In this document: piece after piece, positions 27,099 through 50,998 of the stretch | How positions within the stretch are numbered: position 1 is the first letter of the stretch | Layout of the letters: each line of letters begins with the position of its first letter | Source of the DNA: Deltaproteobacteria bacterium | Lineage (GTDB): Bacteria > Desulfobacterota > BSN033 > WVXP01 | Assembly (NCBI GenBank): GCA_019308905.1 | Contig: JAFDHF010000003.1 | Location: 10,282 to 74,281, forward strand | DNA: 64,000 bases | Direction: 5' to 3' | Notes under the pieces: model-generated | Told to the model about the DNA's origin: nothing | Seen by the model: only the letters and a program-made list of their open reading frames with translations | Database searches by the model: none | Translations under genes and position numbers: made by a program

Positions 27099-28270
27099 AG
27101 AGGACGACAGGACTCTTCGTCTGCAATTGTTACTATCCTCTATCCGCAGGAGTGGGAAACGCCACCGCCAATCTGTGCCGTGCCCTGAAGGAGTATGGGG
27201 GCATCGATCCAGTGGTTATTACCCCGAAACGGTCGCAGAGCCCCGATCGGGAGGTGCACCAGGGGGTCACCGTTATACGTGTTCCAGGCGGAGTCTGGGC
27301 CGGAAATCCTGTGCTTTCCTTTCTTTACTATCCCTGGTTCGCAATCCATCTCCTACGGGAGGTGGTCAGGTACAAGCCCCTTTTTGTGCTTTTTCAGACA
27401 GCATGGGAAGGCGGCCCGCTCATTCCCCTTGTCCGCATGGTCAGCAAAACGCTCGTTGTCGTTCATACCCACGCGGATGTCCACTATGCCAGTCGATTTG
27501 AATCTTGGGCCCGGTTAGCCTATGGCAGGGCAGACATAGTCATGGGCACCACCACGCAGTACCTGCGAGACGTGGAATCCCGTTACATGCGCGCCGACGC
27601 GGTTCTTCTGCCGAACGCTTACTATGCCCCGCGACTTCCCGAAAGCCGAGAGGAACTGCGCAGCCGCTATGGATACTCCCCCGGGTTTGTTCATGTGACC
27701 GCCGTCGGCAGAATGGTTTATGAACTCGATTTGGAGACAAAAGGATTCAGCCATCTGATCGAAGCAGCAGCCAAGGTACCGGGGGTTTGGCTTCACATGT
27801 TCGGCACAGGTCCGGCCAGGCAGAGATATGAGCGGATGGCCGAGAACCTGGGGGTTGCCCTCAGATGCACTTTCTATGGCCACCAGCCCGGGGATGTCCT
27901 CTTGCGGCACCTGAAGGCCGGGGATGTGCTGGTTATTTCTTCCCTCAACGAAGGCCTAAGTATGGCCCTCATCGAGGCCTTGTGCCTTGGGGTTCCGATA
28001 ATCGCCACCAGAACCGCCGGAGCCTTGGACTATATCCGCAATGGTTATAACGGGCTCCTCATCCCTCCGGGAGACACCGCCTCGCTGGTAGAAGCCCTTG
28101 AGTATGCCACGAGAGAACCGGACAGACTCGCCCGGATGGGCAGAGAGGGTAGGCTCACCTTTGAGCGGAGTTTTGCCCCACCCGTCATTGCATCGGAATT
28201 CGTGCAGGTGATCTCGCGTGTATTGGAGTCCCGACGGATGAGAACAAGAACCCCTGTAGAAACCACATGA
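27041..28270 (+). CDS. GT4-family glycosyltransferase
   Basis: ISSLNEGLSMALIEALCLGVPIIATRTAGALDYIRNGYNGLL is the E-x7-E motif. Start uncertain (overlaps the AsnB 3' end). Confidence 0.8.
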   Translation: MDASDVRNVARQARREHVLKRTTGLFVCNCYYPLSAGVGNATANLCRALKEYGGIDPVVITPKRSQSPDREVHQGVTVIRVPGGVWAGNPVLSFLYYPWFAIHLLREVVRYKPLFVLFQTAWEGGPLIPLVRMVSKTLVVVHTHADVHYASRFESWARLAYGRADIVMGTTTQYLRDVESRYMRADAVLLPNAYYAPRLPESREELRSRYGYSPGFVHVTAVGRMVYELDLETKGFSHLIEAAAKVPGVWLHMFGTGPARQRYERMAENLGVALRCTFYGHQPGDVLLRHLKAGDVLVISSLNEGLSMALIEALCLGVPIIATRTAGALDYIRNGYNGLLIPPGDTASLVEALEYATREPDRLARMGREGRLTFERSFAPPVIASEFVQVISRVLESRRMRTRTPVETT

Positions 28271-29703
28271 AAGCGGTTGTCTATCGGCCCAACGACGGCT
28301 TTCTCTGCGAAGAGAACGGGACCAGTGCACCGACCACGTACAGGGTCTTCCCATACTCCCTTGCCGTTTGCGCGGCTTCCCTGGAGGAATCCGGCGTGGA
28401 GGTGGGGGTGGTGGATGCCGCGGCAGGACGGCTGGGGTGGCAGAAGGCGATCGGCCTGGTCGAGAAGGAGAGGCCCGAGGTGGTGATAGTGGCCGTGAAC
28501 AACATTGCAGCAGGCCTCGATATGCAGGGGATAGAGCAGATGAAGTCCCGCCTGGCCATACCTGTGGTGGCCCTCATGACACACCCCATGGAAGAGGAGA
28601 CGATCCGTTCCTACCCCTTCCTGGACGTGGCGATTCGGAGGGAATGGAGTTCGACTGCGGTCGACGTCCTAAAGGCCTTGGCGGGAAGAAAAGACCTTGC
28701 CCTTGTTCCCGGTGTGACCCTGGTCCGTGACGGCGAAGTGGTCAGGACGGAAGGGCGTCCCCATCAGGGATTGGACGAAAGGCCTGTTCCCGCCTTACAC
28801 CTCTTCCCCATGAAACAGTATGACTCTTATCAGATAGCCATGTCAGAGGGGTGCAATTACCACTGCTCCTTTTGTTGGTTTTGCGGCTATCCACCATCAG
28901 GTTGGTCGGGCAGGAATATCGACCGCGTCCTGGAGGAACTCCGGAGGTTGAAGAGCTACGGGAGTAAGCCGGTTTTCACCATAGACGACGAGTTGACCTT
29001 CGACCCGGAGTACGCGAAACGGGTGTGCCAAGGCATCGTCAAGGCCAAGATCAACATGATGTTCTCGGCAAACACCCGGGCAGACAGAGCAGAGGACGAA
29101 CTACTTGAAATGATGTCTCGCGCCGGATTCTTCAATCTGCAGTTCGGCGTGGAATCAGGATGCCAGGAGATCCTGGACAGGAACGGGACCAGAAAGACCC
29201 TGGAGCAAGCAAAGGCGGCCTTCGCCTTGCTGGAGAAACACCGGATCGCTTCGAAGGTATTTTTCTTGATCGGCTTGCTCCACGAGACCAGGGAGACCGT
29301 ACAGCAGACCTTTCGTTTTGTCAGGGAGGAGCTCAACCACTACGATGCCTCCTTTGATATCGCCATCCCGTACCCGGGTACGAGCATGCACAGATTCCTC
29401 AAACGGAAGGGGTGGATTCGAACCCTCGACCCGGAGAACCTCTCGTGGATCTATTTCCATGTATACGGCTGCAGGCAGCTCGCAGGGACACCCATGAGGA
29501 AACCTTTCTGGCGGATTGGAAAGATGACCTTTGACGACTTGTACGAGATGGAGAGGAAGTTCTACCGTTATGTCCCTCGGGGCGGTCTGGTGCCGCAGCT
29601 CAAGCGTCTGATGTTCAATCGTGCTTTTCGAAGGACGACCAGGGATCTGCTCTGGCACGAACCGGGCGAGCTCCTCGGGCTGGCCGCCCGCCTCCTCAGT
29701 TAG
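28267..29703 (+). CDS. B12-binding (class B) radical SAM enzyme
   Basis: N-terminal cobalamin-binding Rossmann domain, then CNYHCSFC (CxxxCxxC) and the radical SAM core. Confidence 0.8.
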   Translation: MKAVVYRPNDGFLCEENGTSAPTTYRVFPYSLAVCAASLEESGVEVGVVDAAAGRLGWQKAIGLVEKERPEVVIVAVNNIAAGLDMQGIEQMKSRLAIPVVALMTHPMEEETIRSYPFLDVAIRREWSSTAVDVLKALAGRKDLALVPGVTLVRDGEVVRTEGRPHQGLDERPVPALHLFPMKQYDSYQIAMSEGCNYHCSFCWFCGYPPSGWSGRNIDRVLEELRRLKSYGSKPVFTIDDELTFDPEYAKRVCQGIVKAKINMMFSANTRADRAEDELLEMMSRAGFFNLQFGVESGCQEILDRNGTRKTLEQAKAAFALLEKHRIASKVFFLIGLLHETRETVQQTFRFVREELNHYDASFDIAIPYPGTSMHRFLKRKGWIRTLDPENLSWIYFHVYGCRQLAGTPMRKPFWRIGKMTFDDLYEMERKFYRYVPRGGLVPQLKRLMFNRAFRRTTRDLLWHEPGELLGLAARLLS

Positions 29704-29748
29704 ACCTAGCAACCCGCTCTTTATTTCAAGGTTTTTCCGCGAGGACAT

Positions 29749-31095
29749 ATGAAGATCCTTATGGCAGGAGCAGGACTGGCGAATCTGAGTGCCGCCTATC
29801 ACCTGAAACTCGGGCAGGCCGGGCAGTTGGAATGCAGAATCTTCGAACAAGGGAATCGAGTGGGCGGACTATGCAGGACCGTTCTCAAGGACGGTTTTGC
29901 CTTCGACCTCACGGGGCACCTGCTCCATTTTCGAACGGACTACTGCCGGGAATTGGTGACGGCCCTGCTCGGCGACAACCTCCGCAGACTCGAAAGAAAG
30001 GCGTGGGTCTACTCGCACGGCCGATATATCCGGTATCCCTTCCAGGCAAATCTGCACGGTTTGCCGCCGGAGATAGTGCGGGAGTGTGTGAAGGGTTTTA
30101 TGGAGGCCGACCGTCGGCATGGAGGGGTGACACCCGGTGAGCTCTTGGAAATGAGTTTCAAGGAATGGGTCACCGGCAGGTTCGGTCGGGGTATCGCCCG
30201 GCATTTCATGATCCCCTATAACCGAAAGCTCTGGACCGTTGACCCCGGCGAGCTGACCTGCGACTGGATGGGTAGGTACGTCCCGTGCCCGACCGTGGAA
30301 GAGGTGATCGCGGGTGCTGCCGGCGAGAACGTCAGGCAGTACGGCTACAACGCCCACTTCTGGTATCCCCTGAAAGGTGGCATCCAATCCCTTTCGGACG
30401 CTTTGGCTCAAGGTGCGGGCGATATTCGGCTGAACAAGGAGGTGGTCTGTGTCGACCTCTCCTCGAAGACGATCGAGTTCCAGGACGGGGATGGGGCCGA
30501 CTATGAGATCCTGGTATCGGCGATTCCCCTCAAGAAGATGATCGGCTTGTGCCGCGGAGTGCCCGAGGGACTGAAGAAAGCCGCCTCCGGCCTGAGATAC
30601 GCCTCTGTTCTCGATATCAATCTGGGCATTGATAGGGCGAAGATCTCCGAAAAGCACTGGATCTATTTCCCAGAGGGGAGATTTGTCTTCTATCGGGTCG
30701 GATTCCCCATGAATTTCTCCCCTTACGTCTGCCCGCCGGGCTCGAGCTCCGTTTACGTGGAGGTCGCCCTCACTCCGGGGAACTCTGTAGATGAAGAGGA
30801 TACGGCAAGAGTCGCCGTGGACCAGCTCGTCGAAACCGGCCTGCTTCGAAATCGGAAAGAGGTGGTGGTCACTCATATCCAACGCATTCCTTTCGCGTAT
30901 GCAATCTATGACCAACATCGCCGCCGGGCAGTGCCGGCCTTGCTCTCCTTTCTGAGGGAGTACTCAGTGTATTCGATAGGGCGGTATGGTGCCTGGGAGT
31001 ATTCGGCGATGGAGGACGCCCTCCTTGCCGGAAGAAATGTAGCCAGAGAGATCGTCGCGTCCCGGTTGGTCAGCCGGGGCTCCAGGGCCGCGTGA
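29749..31095 (+). CDS. FAD/NAD(P)-binding oxidoreductase (amine-oxidase / UDP-galactopyranose-mutase-like)
   Basis: MKILMAGAGLANLSAAYHL...GNRVGGL dinucleotide-binding motif. FWYPLKGGIQSL is the mutase/oxidase family motif. Confidence 0.7.
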   Translation: MKILMAGAGLANLSAAYHLKLGQAGQLECRIFEQGNRVGGLCRTVLKDGFAFDLTGHLLHFRTDYCRELVTALLGDNLRRLERKAWVYSHGRYIRYPFQANLHGLPPEIVRECVKGFMEADRRHGGVTPGELLEMSFKEWVTGRFGRGIARHFMIPYNRKLWTVDPGELTCDWMGRYVPCPTVEEVIAGAAGENVRQYGYNAHFWYPLKGGIQSLSDALAQGAGDIRLNKEVVCVDLSSKTIEFQDGDGADYEILVSAIPLKKMIGLCRGVPEGLKKAASGLRYASVLDINLGIDRAKISEKHWIYFPEGRFVFYRVGFPMNFSPYVCPPGSSSVYVEVALTPGNSVDEEDTARVAVDQLVETGLLRNRKEVVVTHIQRIPFAYAIYDQHRRRAVPALLSFLREYSVYSIGRYGAWEYSAMEDALLAGRNVAREIVASRLVSRGSRAA

Positions 31096-31132
31096 AGAGC
31101 ATGGAGCCGCGAGACGGTACCGAAGGTCACCC

Positions 31133-33032: not shown

Positions 33033-33041
33033 CGTTCTTCA

Positions 33042-34598
33042 ATGAGACTCATGACTGACCCATTGGTCCTCATTTCAGGCCTGGCCTTGGCCTGCATCGG
33101 CTACAACTCCCTCTGGTATGCCCGCTTCAGGGATTCCCTTGAGGACACTGATTTTGGGTATGCCAGCTACCACGGGTGCAAGGCCGGGAAGGAGGGGAAT
33201 CGCAGAGTCCTCTCAGAGGCCGGAGACTTTCCGTCTTTCAAGACGATCCTGTACTACTTCTTCTATTGGTCATATGGGCTTTCCAGGTCACCGGTTCGGG
33301 CTCCGCGGATTCTCTTCTGCATCGTCGATACCTTCGGCGTGATCTTCTTCTCCCTGGCTCTCTATCTGCTCTCCCGTTCACCATCTCAGACGATCATGGG
33401 CACATTGGTTTTCTGTGTCCTCTCTTCGGCCCCGCAACTCGGAGGGTTGTATCTCCAATCCGAGTTCTGGGCCCTCACGTTTACCTCCGCCGCCCTTGCC
33501 CTCATTTTGTCGAACAATCCCTTCTCCGCCTTTGCCGGGGGAATGTGTCTCGCCGTAAATCCTCTCTCTGTGAAGCCCGTCTATCTCGTGGAATCCATGG
33601 TTCTTATCTCCTTGGCGCCGGGAGATCTCAAAGCACCTGTGGGAACTGGTTTTGTTGCTTGTGCCTGTCTCATCCTATTGCTATACGGGAAGGACGGTTT
33701 CCTGGGATGGATTCCCTTCCATCTCAAGGACCGGGGGATGCTCAAGTATTTCTTGAAGTTCAACAGAAGGGGCTCAGGCAGGAGGAGGATCCGGAACCTG
33801 ATCGTATTTTTCCCTGTCTTTTTCACGGTCTTTCCACCACTGATCGCCCCTGCGTTGTCGAACCCGCAGGCCTTACCGACAAGGCTCTGGGCTTTGGCTG
33901 TTGCAGAAGGGCTTATCGTGGTGGTGCAGTTTCGGTTTTTCAGGTATCACTTCGTCACGCTTCTCCCCGGTTGGGTCTTGCTGTTTGCATGCGCCCCCTT
34001 TTCGGTTCTTCACCTCCCCGGGTTCATCCCCGTGGCGTACACCCTATCTTTCCTTTTCTTCAAGAGCAGGGAAGGCCTCGACCGGCGCCTGAACGGTGTG
34101 ATAGTCCACTACCACACGAGGAACTGTGCCGCGCGGCCTATTGCCGAATGGATCAGGGAGAACACGAGCCCCCGGGATCGCATACTGGTTGTTGGGAGTA
34201 CTTTTCAGATATACGTGCATAGCGAGAGGCTCTCTATGTATCCACGGCTGTTTTTCACACCTGAAGTTACTTACAGCAACCCACAGTCAATACGGCTCAT
34301 GGAGAAGACGTTGGCCGGAGCGCCTCCAAAGGCGATCGTCCTCGATCAGAACTGTCTGAACTGGAAGATGGTCGAGTATCTTACAGGGTCGCGCTACAGA
34401 TTCGCAAAGGGTTTCCGATGGAACTCTGAATTTTTCCCCATATACATGAAGGCAGAAAGCGTCGATCGAAAGGCCCCGGAAAACAGAGAACTCTTCATAG
34501 AGTGCCTCCATGTAACCGAGAAACGCCTTTTGTGGAATCCGATGCCGCGACCCGGAGGTATCGATCCCAACCCCACGGCTTTCTGTGAGAGCACGTGA
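33042..34598 (+). CDS. Polytopic membrane protein, GT-C-like (ArnT/PMT-type) glycosyltransferase candidate
   Basis: Many hydrophobic helices in the N-terminal 350 aa, soluble C-terminal domain. No stronger signature. Confidence 0.5.
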   Translation: MRLMTDPLVLISGLALACIGYNSLWYARFRDSLEDTDFGYASYHGCKAGKEGNRRVLSEAGDFPSFKTILYYFFYWSYGLSRSPVRAPRILFCIVDTFGVIFFSLALYLLSRSPSQTIMGTLVFCVLSSAPQLGGLYLQSEFWALTFTSAALALILSNNPFSAFAGGMCLAVNPLSVKPVYLVESMVLISLAPGDLKAPVGTGFVACACLILLLYGKDGFLGWIPFHLKDRGMLKYFLKFNRRGSGRRRIRNLIVFFPVFFTVFPPLIAPALSNPQALPTRLWALAVAEGLIVVVQFRFFRYHFVTLLPGWVLLFACAPFSVLHLPGFIPVAYTLSFLFFKSREGLDRRLNGVIVHYHTRNCAARPIAEWIRENTSPRDRILVVGSTFQIYVHSERLSMYPRLFFTPEVTYSNPQSIRLMEKTLAGAPPKAIVLDQNCLNWKMVEYLTGSRYRFAKGFRWNSEFFPIYMKAESVDRKAPENRELFIECLHVTEKRLLWNPMPRPGGIDPNPTAFCEST

Positions 34599-42128: not shown

Positions 42129-43211
42129 ATGATCAGCGTAGTCATACCTGTTTACAATGAAGAGAAGAACATCGATCTACTGTACGATCGGCTCTCCTCT
42201 GTTCTGTCTCAGCTAAAGTATGACTGGGAGATCATCTTTGTGAACGACGGGAGTGAAGATAATTCTCTCGAGATACTGAAAAGGTACGCAAGCCAGGACA
42301 GAAGAGTAAAAATCATAAGTCTCAGCAGGAATTTCGGCCATCAGGTCGCACTGAGCGCAGGAATGCGGGAGGCAAGGGGTGTCGTGTGTGTCACCATGGA
42401 TTGTGATCTCCAGGATCCTCCTGAGCTGATTCCAGCCATGATAAGAAAATACGAAGAAGGGAACAATATTGTCTATGCGAGGAGAACGAACAGATCCGAC
42501 GGTTTCCTGAAGAAGCTGACCGCAAGGGTCTATTACAAGATATTGGATTTGATCTCCGAGGTCCGCGTCCCCCAAAACGTCGGGGACTTCAGGTTGGTCG
42601 ACAGGAAGGTTTTGACGGTCCTGAACAACCTGCCGGAGAAATGCAGGTACCTTAGAGGTATGGTCAGTTGGGTCGGATTCAAGCAGGCCTTTGTGGAATT
42701 CGACAGGCCCAACAGATGCAATGGGAAGACCAGTTACACCTGGATAAGGATGCTTGAACTCGCTGCAGCCGGTATTCTGAGCTCCTCGCTCCTGCCACTA
42801 AAGTTGGGGATGTACATTGGAATGCTCTCGATGATTGTGGGTTTTGGGTTTCTCATATACATGATCGGAGACACTCTTGTATTCAACACCGTGTACCCTC
42901 TGTACAGGTGGCTCATGGTAGTCGTCTTTGTCTTCTTCGGGCTCAGTTTTATTCTCATTTGGATAATGGCGGAATATATAGGAAGGATCTACAAGGAAGA
43001 AACTGGAAGGCCGCTTTACATCATCGACGAGAAGACAAATCTTGAAACTCAAGTCAGTGAAGATAATCAATTGTACAGTCCCGTATGTGATTGCTCCTGG
43101 GTGGAGATGGGTGAACGGACGTTGAACGGCGACCGTGTCGATTACGGATCTGACCCTCTTGCGGCCGGGCCTGATGGAGAGAGTCTCGAAGTCGCTCACT
43201 CATTGCAGTAA
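42129..43211 (+). CDS. GT2 polyprenyl-phosphate sugar transferase (ArnC/GtrB/DPM1-like)
   Basis: MISVVIPVYNEEKNIDLLYDRL...EIIFVNDGSEDNS...DCDLQDPP, plus two C-terminal TM helices, as in ArnC/GtrB. Confidence 0.8.
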   Translation: MISVVIPVYNEEKNIDLLYDRLSSVLSQLKYDWEIIFVNDGSEDNSLEILKRYASQDRRVKIISLSRNFGHQVALSAGMREARGVVCVTMDCDLQDPPELIPAMIRKYEEGNNIVYARRTNRSDGFLKKLTARVYYKILDLISEVRVPQNVGDFRLVDRKVLTVLNNLPEKCRYLRGMVSWVGFKQAFVEFDRPNRCNGKTSYTWIRMLELAAAGILSSSLLPLKLGMYIGMLSMIVGFGFLIYMIGDTLVFNTVYPLYRWLMVVVFVFFGLSFILIWIMAEYIGRIYKEETGRPLYIIDEKTNLETQVSEDNQLYSPVCDCSWVEMGERTLNGDRVDYGSDPLAAGPDGESLEVAHSLQ

Positions 43212-43230
43212 ATATGCCGAAGCGACGGAT

Positions 43231-44379
43231 ATGGAGAAGAACATACTGATCATCAACAACGAATTTCCGCCGATCGGAGGGGGTGCCGGAAATGCCTCTT
43301 TCTACCTTGCCAAAAATCTCTCGAAACTCGGGCATAGAGTCAGGGTTGTAACTGCGGGGTTCCGTGACCTCCCTCCCAGGGAGGAGGAGGGCGGAGTCAC
43401 AATCAACCGTGTGAAATGCAGCAGAAGGAAACGGTTTGAGTCGGGGCTTTGGGAACTTCTGTCATATGCTGGAAGCGCCGTGAGATTCATATCCCGGGAA
43501 TTGAAGGCCGGCGGAGAAAGGTATGATATCTCGATATGCTTCCACACCCTTCCAGCAGGGATGGTGAGTTATGCCTTGCTAAGAAACTCGAATGTACCGT
43601 ACATAGTCATGCTGCGAGGGGGGGACGTGCCGGGTTTTCTTCCCGAGAGGTTCAGATACTACCACATGGTTTCCATGCCGGTGATCAAGGCTGTGTGGAA
43701 GAACGCACGGCACGTGGTGGCGAACTCGAAAGGACTGGGGGAGCTGGCTGGAAGAACGGCATGCAGGATCGGCCGGGAGGTCCTGGTCATAGAGAACGGC
43801 GTCGATCTTTCCTCATTTCAAGCCCGAAGCAGACACCGGTTCGATGGAACCCTGAGAATGCTCTTTGTGGGCCGGTTGGAGAAACAGAAGGGCATTCCCT
43901 ATCTGATAGAGGCCGTGTCTCTGCTCGCAGTGGAAGACCGCGAAAGGGTCAGAGTCGATCTGATCGGAGAAGGACCCGAAAGGGCGGTTTTGGAAGAGAT
44001 GATAGAGGAGAGAGGGCTCCGCAATTTCAGGTTCCTGGGGTATTTCCCTCATGACAGAATCAGCACGCGATTCGGGGAGGCGGATCTGTTCGTCCTCCCA
44101 TCCCTTTACGAAGGAATGCCGAATGCCCTTCTCGAGGCGATGGCAGGAGGGCTTCCTGCATTGGTAACGGATATCATGGGCAACAATGAATTGGTTGAGA
44201 ATGAAATAAACGGTTTTCTGGTCCCCCCTGCTGATCCGTGGGCGCTGAGGGCTGCCATAATGAGATTCCTGGAACGCCCCGAGTTGCTCTCAGAATTCCG
44301 AGAAAACACCCTGTGCAGGGTACGGAAATTCGATTGGATGAAGGCGACACAAGAGTTGAACAACCTGATAATGAGCTAG
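43231..44379 (+). CDS. GT4-family glycosyltransferase
   Basis: ILIINNEFPPIGGGAGNASFYLAKNL N-terminus and PSLYEGMPNALLEAMAGGLPALVTD (E-x7-E). ATG 43231. Confidence 0.85.
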   Translation: MEKNILIINNEFPPIGGGAGNASFYLAKNLSKLGHRVRVVTAGFRDLPPREEEGGVTINRVKCSRRKRFESGLWELLSYAGSAVRFISRELKAGGERYDISICFHTLPAGMVSYALLRNSNVPYIVMLRGGDVPGFLPERFRYYHMVSMPVIKAVWKNARHVVANSKGLGELAGRTACRIGREVLVIENGVDLSSFQARSRHRFDGTLRMLFVGRLEKQKGIPYLIEAVSLLAVEDRERVRVDLIGEGPERAVLEEMIEERGLRNFRFLGYFPHDRISTRFGEADLFVLPSLYEGMPNALLEAMAGGLPALVTDIMGNNELVENEINGFLVPPADPWALRAAIMRFLERPELLSEFRENTLCRVRKFDWMKATQELNNLIMS

Positions 44380-45437: not shown

Positions 45438-45580
45438 AGAATAGAGATTTGTCTAACTATTTCAAGACCTTATTGTGAGGATGATACACCGAATAACATG
45501 AAAATACAACACAAAAATGACCACATATTCAATTAAATCAATCAATTAGAGTTTCCGGATGGAGTCTATCTACCTGCAAT
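44380..45580 (-). mobile_element. Degenerate insertion-sequence remnant with AT-rich junction
   Basis: The only minus-strand coding signal in the window. Base composition drops sharply at 45440-45580 (runs of A/T such as ATTCAATTAAATCAATCAATTAG). No intact terminal inverted repeats were identified by eye. Confidence 0.5.
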
Positions 45581-45581
45581 C

Positions 45582-46850
45582 ATGATCTTTCCAAAGGACA
45601 AGACGGCCGCTCCCGGGATACACCCGACCGATTCCGGGGATTTTGTCTCCCGTGCCTGTGGAGATCCCGCAGATGTATACGTGGCCGAAGACTCTGATGG
45701 CCTGTTCATGGGGGACCTGATGACCAAAACCGGAGATCCTTTCTATGAAGGATCGAGCATCTTGAAGGTTTCATACTGGTACAAGAAGTCTTTGGTGGTT
45801 CCCCGCTTCAACCTCGTCCTCTTGGAGAAGAAGATCCGGTTCCACTTGGTGGACATCTCTTCCGCGTGGAAGAAGGTAGAAGAGCAATCGGATAGGGTGG
45901 TAACGTCGATTCTTTCTACGTTTGACTTCTTTGAGAGGTCTCCCGATGCAATGGAGGATTTTGGCCGGCTCCTTGGCGACTACTACAGCAGAAAGGGTGT
46001 CGAGCTGGATAAGATGGGTCGCTCCGAAGAGGCAAAGGCGGCGATGCTTACCTCGATCTCCTGTTTCCTGAATCAGGCCGACGTGCATCGGAATCTCGCG
46101 GTGATTCTCGCCCGGCAGGGCGAGCTGGAAAGAGCCGTCCGCTACATCCGTGGTGCTTTACAAATCGATCCACGAAAAGAGGAGTACTGGTCTCTTCTGA
46201 TCGCACTGTTGAACAGATGCGGGCTCGACTCGGAAGGGATCGACTGGATGAGGAAGATGGAGGGGGTGATCCCGCCTGATCCGGGATTGCTCAGAGCCCT
46301 TGGGGCATTGGGGTTGACCTATCACCAGGAAGATATGATCGCCATTGTGCTCGGCTTGATCGAGAAGATTGAGCCAGAGGATGCCATGATAGGTCCCTTG
46401 AAATCAGCCCTGGAAGGCGATCTGAGTGAGGCGGTCAGGCAATATGAGGCACTGCCCACGAAACCGGGCAGCAGGAGCATCCCCCGGGATCTCTCAACGG
46501 CAGGGTGTGAAAGGCCCTTTTCCAACCAAGAGATGCTGAAAACGTTGAGATGTCTCCTTCCGGAGGGGAGACGGCGAATCGCGCTCTACACGGCAGGAGG
46601 AGCTACCAGATCTCTCTTGGAAAGGACCTCCTTTGCCGGCTTCGAGATTGTTTGCATCATCGACAGGGACCGTTCCGGAGGCACACTTAACGGCTATCCG
46701 ATTGTGACACTCAGCACGGCGCTGGAACAAGGAGTGGACTATATCATCGTCTCCAGCCCTGCTTTCTATAGCGAAATCAAGCCGAAACTACAGGCAAGGG
46801 GCCTTAGAGAATTCAACGATTTCAGCCCCCTCCCGCCCCACTCTTCTTGA
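45582..46850 (+). CDS. TPR-like protein fused to Rossmann-like PglD/NeuD-N-like module
   Basis: Central helical/TPR-like repeats. C-terminal RIALYTAGGATRSLL...FEIVCIIDRDRSGGTLNGYPIV...DYIIVSS is the repeated module. Start uncertain. Confidence 0.5.
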   Translation: MIFPKDKTAAPGIHPTDSGDFVSRACGDPADVYVAEDSDGLFMGDLMTKTGDPFYEGSSILKVSYWYKKSLVVPRFNLVLLEKKIRFHLVDISSAWKKVEEQSDRVVTSILSTFDFFERSPDAMEDFGRLLGDYYSRKGVELDKMGRSEEAKAAMLTSISCFLNQADVHRNLAVILARQGELERAVRYIRGALQIDPRKEEYWSLLIALLNRCGLDSEGIDWMRKMEGVIPPDPGLLRALGALGLTYHQEDMIAIVLGLIEKIEPEDAMIGPLKSALEGDLSEAVRQYEALPTKPGSRSIPRDLSTAGCERPFSNQEMLKTLRCLLPEGRRRIALYTAGGATRSLLERTSFAGFEIVCIIDRDRSGGTLNGYPIVTLSTALEQGVDYIIVSSPAFYSEIKPKLQARGLREFNDFSPLPPHSS

Positions 46851-46896
46851 AGGCGGGCATAGGTCTCGAGAAGCCGGATCAGAGGAGAATCGAATC

Positions 46897-47859
46897 ATGC
46901 CTTCGTTTATTTGCGATTTCTTGAAGGAGATCGTCGTCTTGTCCGACGGTGGTGTGACAACCTGCTGCATGGATCCCCTGGGAATGAACCGTTTCGGCAG
47001 CATTTACAGGGACAGCTTTGAAGATATCCAGGCAAGATATATGAGCGTCCGCCGGAGAATAACGAAAGATGTTCTCCTTATGCCCCGATGTTCCAGGTGC
47101 TTCAATAAGATCAAGGAACAAGGCTTTCCCGAGACGGGGACTTACAAGGTCGATCCGGATTCAGCAGAAATCAGGAGGTTTATCGACAGAGGAAGGGACG
47201 ATGTATTTCAGCTCGTGATCGAGCTTTCTTCCAAATGCAACCTCAAGTGTAATGGCTGCATGCAGAGCCGGGTGAATTTTGAAGAATACAGGGCCGATCC
47301 TTTCCTCGACGTCGACTATCTGCAGTCATGGGTGGGCCGATACTGGGGCGAAGTCAAGAAGATACGCCTCTACAATTACGGTGAGACTTTCATGCACCCG
47401 GGGGCACTGGGATTCTGCTCTTTTGTCAAGAAACACGGTCCTGACACCGTGGTTGAGATTGCGACCAACGGAATGCTGCTGGATACGCACGAAAAGAGAA
47501 GGGAAATCGTCTTGTCCGGGGTCGACGATATCGTCTTTTCGATTCACGGAAGCAGCCAAGAGATCATACAGAAGTATATGACCAGGAAGTTCTCTTTTGA
47601 AAAGGTTCTGGATACCTTGAAGGACCTTGCAGCGATCAAGCATGAGCTCGGCTTCTCGAAGCCGAGATTGTTCTGGAAGTATCTCCTCTTTGAATGGAAC
47701 GACTCGGACGAGGAGATAACGAGGGCTAGAACCTTATCCAGGGAAATCGGGCTTGAGGGCGTGATCTTCGGCCTGGTGGGATTTCCGGCCCCTTCAAGAC
47801 GTTTTACACGACACAGCGAAGAGTGGAAACGCCTCGTGAGGGAATCCCAGGCTCTTTGA
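46897..47859 (+). CDS. Radical SAM domain protein
   Basis: SSKCNLKCNGC (CxxxCxxC). An additional N-terminal Cys pair/cluster (TTCCMDP...CSRC). Confidence 0.65.
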   Translation: MPSFICDFLKEIVVLSDGGVTTCCMDPLGMNRFGSIYRDSFEDIQARYMSVRRRITKDVLLMPRCSRCFNKIKEQGFPETGTYKVDPDSAEIRRFIDRGRDDVFQLVIELSSKCNLKCNGCMQSRVNFEEYRADPFLDVDYLQSWVGRYWGEVKKIRLYNYGETFMHPGALGFCSFVKKHGPDTVVEIATNGMLLDTHEKRREIVLSGVDDIVFSIHGSSQEIIQKYMTRKFSFEKVLDTLKDLAAIKHELGFSKPRLFWKYLLFEWNDSDEEITRARTLSREIGLEGVIFGLVGFPAPSRRFTRHSEEWKRLVRESQAL

Positions 47860-47902
47860 GACTAGGTGGCGATTCTCTCAGTTCTTTGTGAAAGGGTAGG
47901 TC

Positions 47903-49057
47903 ATGGAGGAATGGTCTCCGCCGAAGAGATGGAATCCTTTCAACAGCAACAAACTCCTAGCCCAGGTATACCGGTGGCGCCTGATAAAGAGGGGAGCCTC
48001 TCTGCCTCAACCGGTTCTCGTCACGGTCGACCCGATAAACGCATGTAACCTGAGATGCACGTGGTGCAATTCCCGGTTCGTGTTGAGAAATCGGAACGGA
48101 ATGATAGATCGAGAAGCGCTGATGGAAATCGCAGAGGGTCTGGCCCGCTGGCAGGGCAGTCCTGACTGGCCGGCCGGGGTTGAGGCGGTCTGCATCGCGG
48201 GTGGAGGGGAACCTCTCCTGCATCCTGATGTTGGCGCTTTTATCGAATCCTGCATCGACAATGGGATCGAGGTGGGGGTGGTTACCAACGGAGTCAATAT
48301 CGACAGGTTCATCCCCCAGCTCGCCCTCTGCACTTGGGTAGGGGTTTCGGTGGATGCCGGTTCTCGCAAGACGTTCGAATCACTCAAAGGGAGGGACCTT
48401 TTCAACGAGGTCTGCAGGAACATGAGGAGTCTGTCGGACTATCTGTCGCGGAATGCCTGTACCTTAGGCCGCGAAGGCTCGGGCCGGGGGGTGAGCTACA
48501 AGTATCTACTGTACGACGGGAATATCGACGAGGTTTTCGAGGCAGCGAGGATAGCAAAGGAGGTGGGGGCCAAGAACTTTCATCTCCGTCCCGCAGGAAC
48601 CCCGTGGCATCTTCTCCCTGGGAGAAGTGGGTCGGTTTTTCACGGAGATGCCAAGATGAGACTCGGTGAGCAGATTGACAAGGCCCGTGAGCTCGAAGAT
48701 GAAACCTTCGGTGTCTATGCGATTACGCATAAGTTCGGTCCCGAGTTGGAGATCGCGAACAACTTCGACACATGCCATGCTATCTTCATGACAGCGGTTT
48801 TCATGCCGCCGAGGGATGAGAGAAGAGAGAGGTTTTGCGTGAGCTGCTGCTGTGACAGGCGCGGCGACCCCAGGCTGGAGTTTGGAGAATCTCTCAGGGA
48901 ATTCAAACAGGTGGAAGAGTTGTGGGGATCCGAGAAACACTGGCAGATATTCGACCGGATCGATCTGAAAGATTGCCCGCGGTGTACTTACGCACCCCAT
49001 AATCAGATGTTCACCCAGGTCATAGAGAGAGATGACATGACCTATAAGTTCATCTAG
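47903..49057 (+). CDS. Radical SAM / SPASM-domain protein
   Basis: NACNLRCTWC, and a C-terminal CVSCCCDRRG...DCPRCTY Cys cluster. Confidence 0.75.
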   Translation: MEEWSPPKRWNPFNSNKLLAQVYRWRLIKRGASLPQPVLVTVDPINACNLRCTWCNSRFVLRNRNGMIDREALMEIAEGLARWQGSPDWPAGVEAVCIAGGGEPLLHPDVGAFIESCIDNGIEVGVVTNGVNIDRFIPQLALCTWVGVSVDAGSRKTFESLKGRDLFNEVCRNMRSLSDYLSRNACTLGREGSGRGVSYKYLLYDGNIDEVFEAARIAKEVGAKNFHLRPAGTPWHLLPGRSGSVFHGDAKMRLGEQIDKARELEDETFGVYAITHKFGPELEIANNFDTCHAIFMTAVFMPPRDERRERFCVSCCCDRRGDPRLEFGESLREFKQVEELWGSEKHWQIFDRIDLKDCPRCTYAPHNQMFTQVIERDDMTYKFI

Positions 49058-49104
49058 CGGTCACCGAAGAATGCGCCTTTCAAACCCTATCTGGATATGA
49101 GGCT

Positions 49105-49923
49105 ATGGAGAAGGTAAGCATTGTCATTCCGAATTATAACCAGGTGAAATACCTCCCCGCATGTATCGACAGTTGCTATTTTCAAACCTATCCGAATATC
49201 GAGCTGATCATTGTCGACGGGGGGTCGACCGACGGAACAAAAGAATATCTGGCAGGCCTTGAGCAGAGGATCGAAAGCGAGAAGGTCGCTCCTGTACTCT
49301 ATATGGACGGGAACGGAGAGATAGTCTACAAGGAGTGCCTGGCCTACCATGAAGACACCCATGCCGAACATCCGAAACGTGAAATAAAGATATTTTCTTT
49401 TCGTGAAAACCTGGGCAGGACGCGCTCTTATAATGTGGGTTTCAAAGAAGTCACGGGTAGATACTGCACATATGTCGTCGGGGATGACATTGCGCATCCC
49501 CATATGATAGAAGAACTCGTTTCGGCGATAGAGGCAAGTAACGCGGATGTGGTCTATTCCGATTTCAATATAGTCGATGATACAGGGCACATCCTCCGTC
49601 TCGTGCGCAAACCGGACTACGATTTTGAGGAATGTCTTGCCAAGTGGTTCCATCTAGGCGTTTCCCGCCTTCACCGGTCGTCATGGTTCAAAAAAGTGGG
49701 ATTCATGGATGAGGACTTCCGGGTGGCCAACGATTACAGCTTCTTCCTCAAGATGGCCAAAGCCGGGGCGACCTTTCATCACGTCGCGAGGGTCCTGTAT
49801 TCGGTCCGCTTCCACGGTGCCGAAACGGACCTGGAGGAATCTAAGAAGCTCGCTTTAGAGGCAAGGCGATTCATCTGTTCAGGCGGGAGGAAAGAGGAGC
49901 AACTCCACCTTAACGGTGTATAG
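49105..49923 (+). CDS. GT2-family glycosyltransferase
   Basis: VSIVIPNYNQVKYLPACIDSCYFQTYPNIELIIVDGGSTDGT is the GT-A signature. Confidence 0.85.
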   Translation: MEKVSIVIPNYNQVKYLPACIDSCYFQTYPNIELIIVDGGSTDGTKEYLAGLEQRIESEKVAPVLYMDGNGEIVYKECLAYHEDTHAEHPKREIKIFSFRENLGRTRSYNVGFKEVTGRYCTYVVGDDIAHPHMIEELVSAIEASNADVVYSDFNIVDDTGHILRLVRKPDYDFEECLAKWFHLGVSRLHRSSWFKKVGFMDEDFRVANDYSFFLKMAKAGATFHHVARVLYSVRFHGAETDLEESKKLALEARRFICSGGRKEEQLHLNGV

Positions 49924-50998
49924 AGACACGGCAATGACAAGACTGAGAAGACTCGTGATCGAAGTTAGCAATCGATGCAATCTGAGATGCAGGACTTGTA
50001 CGGATAGGCCCCTGAACGGTCCCATTATTCAGCCTGAGGCCTTTGAGGGGATCCTGAAGAAAGTCTCCAGTCCGGATGACATCGAACTTGTCAGGTTTGT
50101 AGGGGCTGGTGAGACATTACTGGTACCCTATTTTGACGAAATGGTCGCCAGGGCGACCAAGGCGTTTCAAGACACGGAGGTGAACTTCTTCACCAACGGG
50201 ATGCTACTGGAACACAGGCTGGTAGAATCCCTTCTAAGACGGAACGTGAGGGCATACATCACCCTATCGATGGATGCCGCTACACCTCATGTGTTCGAGT
50301 ACATCAGGCGAGGGGCTTCTTTCGACAGGATTCTAAAGAACATAGAGAATATCGGCAAACTGAAAGAGGACTATGGCTCCAGATATCCTGTATTGAAAAT
50401 CAACTTCACCATGTTGAAGCACAACGTCAAAGAGATTCCCAAGATGGTCAAATTAGCCAGTGATCTCAACATCGCGGAGATCGTATTCTCGCAGATGGGA
50501 GTCAATGAATCGATTGAATTCGCGAGGATCGACCAGCATCCATTCTATGGAGACAACAGGAAAGCAACCAAACAGGCCCTGCTGGAGGCGCGGGAGTTGG
50601 CACAAGCCTGTGGAGTCGTAGTCACCGCCACGTGGCCACAGGTTTTCGGTTGGACGGAACAGTACTCGGACCGGCACGAACTCGCAGAAGGACTGGGTGT
50701 GGAGTTGAGATATGAACCGTGTGTGTGGGCATTGTCGGCTTTACTGGTGAACATCAGGGGGGACGTATATCCCTGTTGCCGGCACAGTACCGCGTTTGGA
50801 AACATCAAGGATCGCGATGACCTGATCGCTCTGTTCGATTCGGATGAGGCGGAGAGCCTGAGACACAGGTTGTTGAACGGACAGGCCGTAAGGGAATGTG
50901 ACAACTGCATCTGGTACAACCGCTATTCGTTCAGGCATGATAATGAGTACTATTGGATATCGGAAAGCATGTTCGGCAACACAGTCAACATACGATGA
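49916..50998 (+). CDS. Radical SAM / SPASM-domain protein (paralog of 37756-38964)
   Basis: VSNRCNLRCRTC, and a C-terminal Cys cluster (CVWAL...YPCCRHS...CDNCIWY). Collinear similarity to the 37756 gene product. Confidence 0.75.
   Translation: MYRDTAMTRLRRLVIEVSNRCNLRCRTCTDRPLNGPIIQPEAFEGILKKVSSPDDIELVRFVGAGETLLVPYFDEMVARATKAFQDTEVNFFTNGMLLEHRLVESLLRRNVRAYITLSMDAATPHVFEYIRRGASFDRILKNIENIGKLKEDYGSRYPVLKINFTMLKHNVKEIPKMVKLASDLNIAEIVFSQMGVNESIEFARIDQHPFYGDNRKATKQALLEARELAQACGVVVTATWPQVFGWTEQYSDRHELAEGLGVELRYEPCVWALSALLVNIRGDVYPCCRHSTAFGNIKDRDDLIALFDSDEAESLRHRLLNGQAVRECDNCIWYNRYSFRHDNEYYWISESMFGNTVNIR

Follow-up and report, generated by a model that had tools for sequence, protein, structure and literature searches.

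The radical SAM enzyme AprD4 is a sugar dehydratase that acts without cobalamin. Extracytoplasmic, lipid-linked glycosylation, a route that flagellin does not take, is typically marked by polyprenyl-phosphate GT2 glycosyltransferases and polytopic membrane proteins. Glycosylation of flagellin by Maf or FlmG is cytoplasmic (cf. PMC4065374), and the TPR domain of FlmG binds flagellins (PMC7591256).

The window analyzed here, a 64,000-nucleotide stretch from an uncultured metagenome-assembled genome of the anaerobic Desulfobacterota ("Deltaproteobacteria"), contains six radical SAM genes (rS1 to rS6; Table 1), all exactly where the original prediction had placed them. Judged from gene context and remote similarity, on which all functional statements about these genes are based, it is rather probable that they encode O2-independent carbohydrate-tailoring enzymes of six separate, mostly uncharacterized families in a composite glycan island. 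Each would reductively cleave SAM and abstract a hydrogen from a sugar C-H.

A composite glycan island between flagellar genes

The island spans ~43 kb of co-directional genes between fliD and a fliT/flgN-like gene. Pfam identified FlgI, FlgK, FlgL, flagellin, FlaG, and FliD in the upstream flank and the FliT/FlgN-like gene downstream, with Maf-like glycosyltransferases, NeuB, and a cytidylyltransferase inside, bearing out the proposed sugar locus. Three parts were distinguished: the ulosonic-acid and Maf genes, a conserved cassette, and a block encoding a TPR protein, two radical SAM enzymes, a GT2, a further radical SAM enzyme, and a flavoprotein; three gene cassettes of the island were conserved in other genomes. 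The ulosonic-acid module (TIGR01670 match of 165.5 bits, above the 106.95 cutoff) encoded a KdsC-type phosphatase-NeuB-type synthase fusion, an uncharacterized protein, a GmhA-like isomerase, and a CMP-sugar cytidylyltransferase. A UpxY/RfaH-like antiterminator gene (NF033644 UpxY, 77.5 bits, below the cutoff of 100) headed the long co-directional run. The gaps next to the radical SAM genes measured 43–126 nt, no terminator-like site was seen in the island gaps (≤126 nt), and no riboswitch was found.

Table 1. Positions of the features in the window and the matches that identify them.
Feature	Position	Strand	Evidence
Maf/FlmG-like glycosyltransferase, C-terminal TPR	10148..13333	+	Glyco_trans_1_2, DUF3880, TPR, Maf_flag10_N
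UpxY/RfaH-like NusG paralogue	19153..19713	+	NusG, KOW
Ulosonic-acid module	20750..24774	+	PF03102 E = 3e-77; SIS_2; CTP_transf_3
rS1, class-B-like radical SAM, weak N-terminal B12-like domain, AprD4-like	28267..29703	+	PF04055 70.3 bits
FAD amine-oxidase/phytoene-desaturase-like flavoprotein	29749..31095	+	PF01593 E = 4.5e-24
Polytopic membrane protein, first cassette gene	34595..36901	+	At least 10 TM-like segments (hydropathy scan)
SAM-dependent methyltransferase	36873..37766	+	Methyltransf_23/11
rS2, radical SAM, C-terminal twitch-type domain	37756..38964	+	PF04055 60.1 bits; PF13186 47.8 bits
rS3, B12-binding (class B) radical SAM	39011..40510	+	PF02310 66.6 bits (cutoff 32.1); PF04055 89.8 bits
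Sulfotransferase	40635..42065	+	Sulfotransfer_3 E = 2.3e-15
ArnC/PgfS-like GT2	42129..43211	+	PF00535; two C-terminal TM segments, residues 221 and 254
GT4 glycosyltransferase	43135..44379	+	PF00534 E = 8e-39
Stand-alone TPR protein, directly upstream of rS4	45582..46850	+	TPR_2 and related families
rS4, radical SAM, N-terminal twitch-type domain	46897..47859	+	PF13186 residues 10-68; PF04055 residues 109-246
rS5, well-conserved uncharacterized radical SAM family, nucleotide-sugar-linked	47903..49057	+	PF04055 58.2 bits
Soluble GT2 of 272 aa, a conserved neighbor of rS5 and rS6	49105..49923	+	PF00535
rS6, radical SAM, C-terminal twitch-type domain, rare family	49916..50998	+	PF04055 54.2 bits; PF13186 31.5 bits
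Fumarate-reductase/L-aspartate-oxidase-like flavoprotein	51056..52627	+	FAD_binding_2, Succ_DH_flav_C
Two more Maf-like genes	56702-58537; 60266-62035

Six divergent radical SAM families

PF04055 (Radical_SAM) matched all six proteins (50.9–89.8 bits versus a gathering score of 29.5), and the CxxxCxxC motif occurred once in each of them and in none of the other window proteins (6/49). Their pairwise identity was at most 26%, so a recent duplication is not their origin. In the profile-HMM classification proposed earlier, a curated NCBIfam cutoff was reached by none of the six. Sugar or cyclitol enzymes (AprD4, BlsE, BtrN, or SpeY) were the best solved relatives of the five searched singly, while a family-profile search of the PDB with rS5 gave MoaA first and BlsE second, along with AbmM. 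In other genomes, radical SAM domains were fused to CMP- and NDP-sugar nucleotidyltransferases (CTP_transf_3 and NTP_transferase). These fusions, the PDB relatives, and the dehydrogenase linkage of the rS5 family described below support the original suggestion that the substrates are plausibly sugars; the reactions themselves are those we infer.

The auxiliary domains differed from their first description. The three genes called SPASM enzymes (rS2, rS5, and rS6) did encode an auxiliary domain, but with only four to five auxiliary Cys, the twitch pattern of one auxiliary cluster and not the seven Cys of SPASM. Both rS2 and rS6 had Pfam SPASM matches, five C-terminal Cys (C-x17-CC-x39-42-C-x2-C), and BlsE and BtrN as closest PDB sequences. 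No Pfam SPASM match was obtained for rS5, in which C291, C316, C317, C358, and C361 were invariant in 27 homologues. For rS4, listed only as a radical SAM core, PF13186 (28.7 bits) marked a SPASM/twitch-like domain at the N terminus (C6, C23, C24, C65, and C68) that aligned with the C-terminal twitch of rS2, and its top PDB match was the SpeY twitch dehydrogenase (7wzv, E = 1.6e-6).

Two class B enzymes with B12-binding domains had been expected, which held for rS3 and not for rS1, whose PF02310 match of 17.6 bits fell under the 32.1 cutoff. Methylation as the class B reaction is likewise uncertain, as AprD4 was the nearest solved relative of both enzymes and the B12 domain of rS1 was sub-threshold. 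rS1 (motif CNYHCSFC at residue 196) matched AprD4 best in the PDB (6fd2, E = 2.4e-21) and was rare: in a set of 1.84 billion representatives, full-length relatives numbered about 8. The flavoprotein gene starting 45 nt after rS1 had only sub-cutoff NCBIfam matches to "hypothetical protein" PRK07208-type models and encodes a candidate redox partner: dehydration by the AprD4-like rS1 with its degenerate B12 domain, followed by reduction, would amount to deoxygenation.

The rS5 family (902 homologues; 50–70% identity over full length among the matches listed) was statistically linked to UDP-sugar 6-dehydrogenase and to flagellar/Maf loci. A UDPG_MGDP_dh-family (UDP-sugar 6-dehydrogenase) gene started ≤1.3 kb downstream of the rS5 homologue in 46/74 loci and was present anywhere in the locus in 57/79. 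Flagellar structural genes lay within 10 kb in 12/80 loci, and of the 40 well-covered loci (≥20 kb), 15 had flagellar or Maf glycosyltransferase genes within that distance; the flagellar/Maf-linked loci came from Nitrospirota, Planctomycetota, Desulfobacterota, Magnetococcales, and Heliobacterium. No UDP-sugar 6-dehydrogenase was found within the window, which therefore lacks the chief contextual pointer to the function of rS5. The AF2 model (pLDDT 84.8) had DesII, BlsE, and SkfB as top folds, with DesII and BlsE first in Foldseek, and a paralogue elsewhere was a CTP_transf_3-radical SAM-SPASM fusion whose radical SAM part was 29% identical to rS5. The order of rS5 and its GT2 was kept in L004, L005, L006, and L071, the last also carrying NeuB, a u22273 homologue, a cytidylyltransferase, and a class B radical SAM gene. 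With this GT2, rS5 would act on a nucleotide-activated sugar, probably uronic or ulosonic, by DesII/BlsE-like dehydrogenation, decarboxylation, epimerization, or deamination.

Only 33 matches were obtained for rS6, two of them close (52% and 50% identity), and the fold neighbors of its AF2 model (pLDDT 88) were a mix of peptide and sugar enzymes. Locus L146 had rS6, the flavoprotein (502-bit homologue after that of rS6), and a TPR-transferase in conserved order, and L145 had a GT2 followed by rS6, with a cytidylyltransferase and a methyltransferase also common to the island. The flavoprotein next to rS6, for which every NCBIfam match was sub-cutoff, may serve with it in a redox step after rS5.

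Cassette, acceptor, and alternative substrates

The central cassette comprises a membrane protein, a methyltransferase, the twitch enzyme rS2, the B12-binding rS3, an ArnC/PgfS-like GT2, a GT4, and a sulfotransferase. All seven were shared with L147, a 13-kb contig, at 240–745 bits: the membrane protein (570 bits) headed the syntenic cassette, the methyltransferase (240 bits) held the same position, and rS2, the sulfotransferase, and GT4 scored 489, 335, and 437 bits. The 3' end of the methyltransferase gene overlapped the start of rS2, whose Cys comprised C82/86/89 plus C303, C321, C322, C365, and C368 and whose PDB matches were BlsE (core) and BtrN (twitch). The PDB matches of rS3 were AprD4, MgmA, TsrM, and TokK, and its top NCBIfam model was the Sden_1168 P-methyltransferase family (249 bits versus a cutoff of 575). 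The predicted sulfotransferase proved real, 124 nt downstream of rS3 and not 130 nt. An ArnC/PgfS-like GT2 lay near the rS3 homologue in four of the five loci examined (L001, L147, L148, and L149), with L002 and L003 sharing an identical protein and gene order. This GT2 is a candidate polyprenyl-phosphate sugar synthase (in NCBIfam it aligned over the full length with PgfS at 243 bits and with ArnC at 165 bits, each below cutoff). The first membrane protein, which had no Pfam, NCBIfam, or PDB match, is a candidate GT-C-type transferase; a second polytopic protein had at least six TM-like segments, and neither matched a known GT-C family. From its sequences the cassette looks lipid-linked and extracytoplasmic. 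It would build a modified sugar on polyprenyl phosphate, C-methylated by cobalamin-dependent rS3, oxidized or epimerized by rS2, and also O-methylated and sulfated, which the polytopic membrane protein would then transfer outside the cytoplasm.

The attribution to a flagellin glycan agrees with the flagellar setting and is uncertain for 27–44 kb, where the polyprenyl-type GT2 and the two polytopic proteins lie. It is a tentative but serious possibility that the middle part (about 25–44 kb), with rS1, rS2, and rS3, belongs to an envelope glycan or lipid system and not to that of flagellin. Such an Arn-, Gtr-, or Pgf-like system, directed at LPS, EPS, or a surface protein, would merely be housed in the flagellar locus. 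The GT2 with its C-terminal TM helices, the two polytopic proteins, and the cytoplasmic nature of Maf/FlmG glycosylation point this way, as do three genes (AsnB, FemAB-like, and polysaccharide deacetylase) that characteristically occur together in PEP-CTERM EPS loci, an antiterminator of the kind seen in capsule loci, the PMT_2, DUF2079, and DUF6798 membrane proteins adjoining rS3 homologues, and the occurrence of the cassette on L147 without flagellar genes. However, the genes of the middle part run in the same direction as the Maf and ulosonic-acid genes, tightly spaced and without terminator-like sites in the gaps, flagellar genes bracket the island on both sides, and no initiating phosphoglycosyltransferase, Wzx, Wzy, or ABC exporter was detected by Pfam in the window.

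The TPR protein upstream of rS4 is a candidate adaptor to a protein substrate. The nearest relative of rS4 (L087, 51% identity) occurred with Maf, cytidylyltransferase, and NeuB genes. In the flagellar locus L061, TPR was fused to N-twitch radical SAM proteins, whose cores resembled that of rS4 only remotely (E = 2e-5) and whose TPR tails had no significant similarity to the TPR protein. By analogy with the recruitment of FlmG to flagellin by TPR domains, rS4 and this protein may act on a protein-bound glycan. Modification of the flagellin polypeptide or another protein by rS4, rS6, or rS2 through TPR adaptors, in place of a sugar, appears unlikely; epimerization, cross-linking, or Cα/Cβ oxidation would be the reactions proposed. 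SPASM/twitch enzymes are known mainly as peptide modifiers, TPR proteins and fusions accompany N-twitch enzymes, the FlmG TPR domain binds flagellin (PMC7591256), and the flagellin has a short, exposed Ser/Thr-rich segment, but a TPR adaptor fits action on the flagellin-attached glycan equally well. An RRE/PqqD-type recognition domain was detected in none of the six enzymes, the top PDB sequence matches were sugar/cyclitol enzymes, and the conserved neighbors were glycosyltransferases, cytidylyltransferases, and sugar dehydrogenases.

A lipid substrate (polyprenyl, hopanoid-like, ether lipid, or carrier) for the two class B enzymes is improbable. The sub-threshold NCBIfam matches to HpnJ, HpnR, and a "lipid biosynthesis B12-binding/radical SAM protein" family that suggest it were all far under cutoff. 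The rS3 homologue of L002/L003 did lie beside UbiA, geranylgeranyl reductase, prenyltransferase, and phytoene-desaturase-like flavoprotein genes, and a flavoprotein of the last family directly follows rS1; yet the closest rS3 orthologues (L147, 67% identity; L001, 61%) were surrounded by glycosyltransferases, methyltransferases, and a sulfotransferase, and AprD4 acts on a sugar. A separate RiPP cluster or anSME-type sulfatase maturases are highly improbable and close to refuted: against generic SPASM/twitch matches, weak sub-threshold NCBIfam matches to peptide maturases, and a 17-aa, 3-Cys ORF at 50999-51052, that ORF had no Shine-Dalgarno and was not kept beside rS6 homologues, the flank search, in line with the first impression, turned up no credible precursor ORF in the gaps, genes for a peptidase, transporter, RRE, or sulfatase were not found within the window, no sulfatase gene or anSME signature appeared among the Pfam-scanned window genes and NCBIfam profiles, and no curated RiPP or anSME cutoff was reached.

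Precedent in other loci

The chemistry encoded here had been said to look unprecedented for a flagellin glycan. This holds for the literature searched, in which no paper linking radical SAM enzymes to flagellin glycans was found, but not for genomes: many glycan and flagellar loci of anaerobes carry members of several of the island families. Uncharacterized radical SAM families turn up repeatedly in the sugar and flagellar loci of related genomes.

Domain architecture of the radical SAM proteins

The six radical SAM (rSAM) genes of the original prediction, designated rS1 to rS6, were present exactly as claimed. All six proteins matched PF04055 (50.9-89.8 bits against a gathering score of 29.5), which directly establishes their identity as members of the superfamily, and each contained one CxxxCxxC motif that was absent from the other 43 predicted window proteins. 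Pairwise identity among them was at most 26%, and they therefore represent six separate families rather than recent duplicates. In profile-HMM classification, the check proposed with the original prediction, no protein reached any curated NCBIfam cutoff, including those of the AprD4-family diol dehydratase NF033070 (cutoff 500 bits; rS1 92.6 and rS3 123.1), the Sden_1168 family P-methyltransferase NF038361 (cutoff 575 bits; rS3 249.2 over a near full-length alignment), and the tungsten-cofactor oxidoreductase rSAM maturase TIGR04317 (cutoff 380; rS6 127.4, rS2 113.1, rS4 82.6, and rS5 51). Scores to the N_Twi_rSAM model NF033640 were 33-97.5 bits against a cutoff of 170, so the proteins are not members of that family.

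Two class B enzymes had been predicted, and this held for rS3, which is class B by its PF02310 domain (66.6 bits against a cutoff of 32.1) with predicted cobalamin binding, whereas rS1 stayed below the cutoff at 17.6 bits. The nearest solved relative of rS1 is AprD4, which we take to contain a B12-like domain without cobalamin. The SPASM label given to three further proteins had to be revised. Both rS2 and rS6 matched PF13186, yet their five auxiliary Cys residues (C-x17-CC-x39-42-C-x2-C) corresponded to a one-cluster twitch domain and not to the seven-Cys motif, while rS5 lacked a Pfam SPASM match and displayed twitch-pattern Cys instead. The enzyme rS4, described earlier as core only, contained an N-terminal SPASM/twitch-like domain (PF13186, residues 10-68) that aligned with the C-terminal twitch of rS2. 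Across the four proteins, the auxiliary Cys (five in rS2, rS4, and rS6; four to five conserved in rS5) followed the spacing C-x16-20-C(C)-x39-42-C-x2-C, the pattern of a single auxiliary [4Fe-4S] domain with about four Cys of the BtrN/MoaA/SpeY type, and rS2 residues 299-370 aligned with the BtrN twitch region 165-237. In rS5, C291, C316, C317, C358, and C361 were invariant among 27 homologues and a GGE motif was invariant across the family.

The solved relatives of the six proteins all act on sugars, cyclitols, or nucleotides, with modest E-values for the twitch enzymes (1e-5 to 1e-8). We take BtrN and SpeY to be twitch dehydrogenases, AprD4 a 1,2-diol dehydratase, and DesII a TDP-4-amino-4,6-dideoxyglucose deaminase/dehydrogenase. 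BlsE is a cytosylglucuronate decarboxylase acting at glucuronate C5 (PMC3715490).

Table. Location and closest similarities of the window features discussed in the text.
Feature	Coordinates	Strand	Description
Flagellin	6362-7204	+	280 aa, minimal
TPR-bearing proteins	10148-13333, 14555-16084, 45582-46850, 52635-55049		Maf-like glycosyltransferase, double methyltransferase, glycerophosphotransferase/capsule-synthesis-like domain, and stand-alone protein before rS4 (45582-46850)
ORFs with no family match	5498-6181, 13353-14597, 19844-20542	-	173-235 aa
NusG paralogue	19153-19713	+	Closest to UpxY/RfaH/LoaP-type operon-specific antiterminators; UpxY 77.5 bits against a cutoff of 100
Ulosonic-acid module	20750-24774	+	KdsC-type HAD phosphatase-NeuB-type synthase fusion, GmhA-like SIS isomerase, PseF/KdsB-like CMP-sugar cytidylyltransferase
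u22273	22273-23229	+	318 aa, no family match; faint GT-B-like C-terminal similarity
AsnB/FemAB/deacetylase triad	25218-27098, 31133-32062, 32040-33032		Asparagine-synthase-type amidotransferase, FemAB-like protein, polysaccharide deacetylase; triad typical of PEP-CTERM exopolysaccharide loci
rS1	28267-29703	+	Best PDB relative by sequence: AprD4
Membrane proteins	33042-34598, 34595-36901		Polytopic, at least 6 and at least 10 TM-like segments
rS2	37756-38964	+	Best PDB relatives by sequence: BlsE, then BtrN
rS3	39011-40510	+	Best PDB relatives by sequence: AprD4, then MgmA, TsrM, TokK
ArnC/PgfS-like GT2	42129-43211		Two C-terminal TM segments
rS4	46897-47859	+	Best PDB relative by sequence: SpeY
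rS5	47903-49057	+	Best PDB relatives via family profile: MoaA, BlsE, AbmM
rS6	49916-50998	+	Best PDB relatives by sequence: BtrN, then BlsE
17-aa ORF MEFCPAPWCRTCVIRRE	50999-51052	+	Three Cys; begins immediately behind the rS6 stop; shares the reading frame of the flavoprotein gene, from which a stop separates it

Flagellar island and the rS5 family

The window starts with FlgI, FlgK, FlgL, flagellin, FlaG, and FliD, followed by a gene run of ~52 kb that lies almost entirely on the plus strand, ends at a FliT/FlgN-like gene, and includes three Maf-like glycosyltransferases (one TPR-fused; Maf_flag10_N at 33.5 and 37.8 bits against a cutoff of 23.5) and many further glycosyltransferases. By gene content (flagellin/fliD locus, Maf, NeuB, and CTP_transf_3) it is a flagellin glycosylation island of an uncultured organism represented by a MAG, with flagellin as the predicted carrier of the glycan. 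The sole non-helical segment of the flagellin (residues 141-193) comprised 16 Ser/Thr in 53 residues and is a plausible candidate glycosylation patch. The NusG paralogue was preceded by a 310-nt gap and located ~1 kb upstream of the start of the co-directional glycan run at 20750, as in capsule loci. From this start on, the largest gap between plus-strand genes was 126 nt, and a scan for terminators and promoters yielded numbers close or equal to chance expectation, with no such site in the intergenic gaps, which is consistent with co-transcription and otherwise uninformative. No riboswitch or other RNA family, including cobalamin and SAM elements, was identified by Rfam in the whole window. 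The minus-strand ORFs of the table break the plus-strand layout and may not be real genes; the ORFs at 22273, 24756, 44506, and 45177 had no Pfam or NCBIfam match.

The window carried no PseB/C- or LegB/C-type genes, which suggests that the ulosonic acid is made from a sugar phosphate and is KDN/KDO-like rather than pseudaminic or legionaminic acid. The protein u22273, encoded within this module, was conserved along with NeuB and rS5-family proteins in three other loci (L007, L009, and L071; 322-382 bits).

Comparison with other genomes directly established three conserved cassettes and showed that rS5 is linked both to nucleotide-sugar enzymes and to flagellar loci. The rS5 search gave 902 matches, and those listed were 50-70% identical over their full length. 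A scan of one genome per species yielded 80 loci from Desulfobacterota, Geobacter relatives, Nitrospirota, Planctomycetota, Synergistota, Heliobacterium, Magnetococcales, and DPANN archaea. Cultured carriers of the family are Heliobacterium mobile DSM 6151, in which Maf genes flank rS5 and a class B rSAM on either side, Maridesulfovibrio bastinii, Desulfovibrio sp. 7SRBS1, Dethiosulfatarculus sandiegensis, and Desulfuromonas sp. CSMB_57. A gene of the UDP-glucose/GDP-mannose-dehydrogenase family started on the same strand within 1.3 kb downstream of rS5 in 46 of 74 loci and was located anywhere in the locus in 57 of 79; the window itself contained no UDP-sugar dehydrogenase. In the clade nearest to the window (L004, L005, and L071), a 275-aa GT2 comes first after rS5 as in the window, and L071 has the order NeuB, u22273 homologue, rS5, GT2, several genes, cytidylyltransferase, and class B rSAM.

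Flagellar structural genes were found within 10 kb of rS5 in 12 of 80 loci, and flagellar genes or a Maf-type glycosyltransferase domain in 15 of the 40 loci having at least 20 kb of sequence. Since flagellar filament genes occupy a small share of a genome, these counts point to a strong enrichment of rS5 at flagellar loci, by an uncontrolled estimate. Seven planctomycete loci with TPR-only "Maf" matches were dropped from the Maf glycosyltransferase count, while five of them (L039, L045, L049, L051, and L057) were still counted via their FlgI/K/L genes. Natural fusions joined rSAM and SPASM domains to a CTP_transf_3 cytidylyltransferase in a paralogue from Desulfovibrio sp. 7SRBS1 (L005:13295-15010; 571 aa, rSAM part 29% identical to rS5) and a radical SAM domain to an NTP_transferase in a locus of an rS3 homologue (L149:6084-8003; 639 aa), and such fusions to CMP-/NDP-sugar nucleotidyltransferases point at the substrate class. 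The proposed reaction of rS5 is hydrogen abstraction from a uronic or ulosonic sugar in its nucleotide-activated form, with an outcome like those of DesII and BlsE.

Candidate substrates and acceptors of the other enzymes

The part of the window between 25 and 44 kb is unlike a cytoplasmic flagellin-glycosylation pathway and resembles Arn/Gtr/Pgf-type systems, in which a sugar is loaded onto polyprenyl phosphate and then transferred outside the cytoplasm. Full-length alignments of its GT2 scored 243 bits with PgfS (cutoff 500) and 165 bits with ArnC (cutoff 529), the amidotransferase of the AsnB/FemAB/deacetylase triad reached 627 bits with the XrtA/PEP-CTERM amidotransferase model without attaining its cutoff, and the two membrane proteins had no family in Pfam, NCBIfam, or PDB, including no GT-C family. 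The sulfotransferase predicted near the second class B gene is real and follows rS3 by 124 nt. Homologues of rS3 were numerous, and the closest context examined (L147, 67% identity) repeats the window cassette gene for gene (240-745 bits) with a membrane protein like that at 34595-36901, methyltransferase, rS2 and rS3 orthologues, ArnC/PgfS-like GT2, and GT4, together with a further twitch rSAM, GT2, sulfotransferase, and another class B rSAM. Three other rS3 contexts (L001, L148, and L149) encoded an ArnC-like GT2, more class B and SPASM rSAMs, and large membrane proteins assigned to PMT_2, DUF2079, and DUF6798, and a B12-radical SAM protein fused to two methyltransferase domains was found elsewhere (L030:14462-17368; 968 aa).

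Flagellin never passes through the periplasm, and it is consequently just one candidate acceptor for the 25-44 kb part. That this cassette serves an envelope glycan instead has, for that part, a considerable probability short of an even chance, given the likeness to lipid-linked systems on one side and the position inside a flagellar gene run on the other. rS3 would be a candidate cobalamin-dependent C-methyltransferase on a sugar destined for polyprenyl phosphate and rS2 a candidate twitch dehydrogenase or epimerase on the same sugar, which would be further O-methylated and sulfated. rS1 and its adjacent flavoprotein may carry out an AprD4-like deoxygenation. rS1 was rare, with ~8 representative clusters among 1.84 billion proteins aligning over the full length at 31% identity or more. 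The Amino_oxidase gene adjacent to rS1 was not detectably related to those beside the rS3 homologue in L002, and an rSAM plus amine-oxidase pair was therefore rejected as a conserved unit.

The nearest relative of rS4 (L087, 51% identity) is encoded beside another twitch rSAM, a Maf-like gene, a cytidylyltransferase, and NeuB, and in the rS4 family 5 of 36 members contained TPR repeats and 1 of 36 a sulfotransferase domain. A flagellar locus of a Nitrospiraceae MAG (L061) has the order FlgI through FliD, rS5, and UDP-sugar dehydrogenase, and downstream of these, an RGP-like protein, and an FkbM methyltransferase it encodes two adjacent proteins (L061:16475-19568; 564 and 460 aa) with a radical SAM core and C-terminal TPR. 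Pfam detected an N-terminal SPASM-like domain in the 564-aa protein only, and both are only remote relatives of rS4. Orthology between the TPR protein preceding rS4 and the TPR tails of these fusions was unsupported by sequence, the architecture alone being analogous. The TPR repeats of the window are attached to four different catalytic classes, which fits, and suggests, a common TPR-based principle that aims enzymes of the island at flagellin. The TPR domain of FlmG binds flagellins (PMC7591256), and by analogy the TPR protein encoded upstream of rS4 may direct this enzyme to a glycan attached to protein. The family of rS6 was rare with two close relatives: GT2 then rS6 were found next to a cytidylyltransferase in L145, and the order rS6, fumarate-reductase-like flavoprotein, and TPR-glycerophosphotransferase-like protein was kept in L146. 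rS6 and its flavoprotein could perform a coupled redox step.

In its boldest form, the proposal is that TPR adaptors, separate as with rS4 or fused as in L061, would bring rSAM enzymes to glycosylated flagellin to edit the attached glycan or the Ser/Thr-sugar junction, alongside a widespread rS5 family doing new chemistry on UDP-uronic/CMP-ulosonic sugars in anaerobes. We consider this combination unlikely; if true, TPR-recruited editing would constitute a previously unknown "post-glycosylational" radical chemistry on protein-bound sugar. That a twitch enzyme modifies the flagellin polypeptide itself, an option that the same TPR-based targeting would allow and that the sugar, cyclitol, and nucleotide substrates of the solved relatives do not favor, is likewise improbable. 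Action of the class B enzymes on lipid is less likely: a more lipid-like rS3 context with UbiA, geranylgeranyl reductase, and prenyltransferase exists in L002/L003, and the closest context examined is the glycosyltransferase cassette of L147.

No peptide substrate genes accompany the rSAM genes, as observed directly in a scan that covered all gaps of 40 nt or longer and ORFs of 12 aa or longer. The earlier statement that no small precursor ORF lies beside these genes was borne out, with gaps of 43-126 nt and no plausible candidate. The sole Cys-rich ORF (17 aa, following rS6) lacked a Shine-Dalgarno sequence and was not conserved beside the rS6 homologues in L145 and L146, and is therefore probably due to chance. 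Peptidase, RRE/PqqD, exporter, and sulfatase domains were absent from the scanned window genes and the six rSAMs, and no anSME model was among the NCBIfam matches shown. Neither an adjacent RiPP precursor nor a set of anSME-type enzymes with a sulfatase nearby, the findings named in advance as contrary to the original prediction, was thus encountered, and a RiPP cluster or anSME maturases, for which a SPASM-like domain in several of the proteins would speak, are nearly excluded.

Comparison with known systems

To our knowledge, rSAM chemistry on sugars is known almost solely from antibiotic pathways. Sugar-acting rSAM enzymes as such are not new; the variant seen here lies in how regularly such candidate enzymes occur in the flagellar and surface-glycan loci of anaerobes, together with the conserved rS5-dehydrogenase pairing, the rSAM-TPR fusions, and a portable cassette of methyltransferase, twitch rSAM, B12-rSAM, ArnC-like GT2, GT4, and sulfotransferase. 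If the six enzymes act on surface or flagellar glycans, anaerobes would possess a hidden set of sugars altered by C-methylation, deoxygenation, decarboxylation, epimerisation, and sulfation, which on flagella or envelope would bear on motility, phage and immune recognition, and enzyme discovery. Entry points are the rS5 family (tied to the dehydrogenase in most genomes and present in cultured carriers), the portable cassette, and the rSAM-nucleotidyltransferase fusions.

The antibiotic-pathway enzymes DesII, BlsE, BtrN, SpeY, and AprD4 share the rSAM core with the window enzymes, include their best solved relatives by sequence and are among the best by fold, and have in common with rS2, rS4, and rS6 a single twitch auxiliary-cluster domain; as for them, the probable substrates of the window enzymes are nucleotide- or nucleoside-linked sugars. 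Identity is however only 14-21%, below any curated family cutoff, and the antibiotic enzymes belong to secondary-metabolite clusters in contrast to a cell-surface/flagellar glycan island. The twitch of rS4 is N-terminal, unlike in these relatives, and the partner genes of the window (GT2, fumarate-reductase-like flavoprotein, and TPR proteins) also differ.

Maf/FlmG plus nonulosonic-acid islands of Campylobacter, Aeromonas, Caulobacter, and Clostridium are like the window in flagellin/fliD adjacency, Maf-like or TPR-bearing glycosyltransferases, a NeuB-type synthase, and a CMP-sugar cytidylyltransferase. The window differs in lacking PseB/C or LegB/C, in the fusion of its synthase to a KdsC-type phosphatase, and in its length of ~52 kb, which includes a sulfotransferase gene, a putative lipid-linked module, and the six rSAM genes. 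With ArnC/ArnD/ArnT, GtrA/B/C, and streptococcal PgfS/PgfM it shares a GT2 of ~320-360 aa with two C-terminal TM helices and, in the same operon, a polysaccharide-deacetylase-family gene and large polytopic membrane proteins, although the latter match no known GT-C family and the pathway genes are interspersed with those for rSAM, methyltransferase, and sulfotransferase enzymes.

The literature searched yielded no paper in which radical SAM enzymes are connected with nonulosonic acids or with the glycosylation of flagellin. The nearest genomic record to the window combination is that of C. jejuni HS:19, whose LOS/capsule clusters contain sulphotransferase, glycosyltransferase, and "anSME-like" radical SAM genes, and also methyltransferase plus radical SAM (PMC8743553). 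A sulfotransferase, a glycosyltransferase, and an rSAM thus co-occur in a surface-glycan locus in both cases, a likeness of gene co-occurrence with function predicted in both, while the C. jejuni genes lie in capsule/LOS regions of another organism and those of the window in a flagellar locus.
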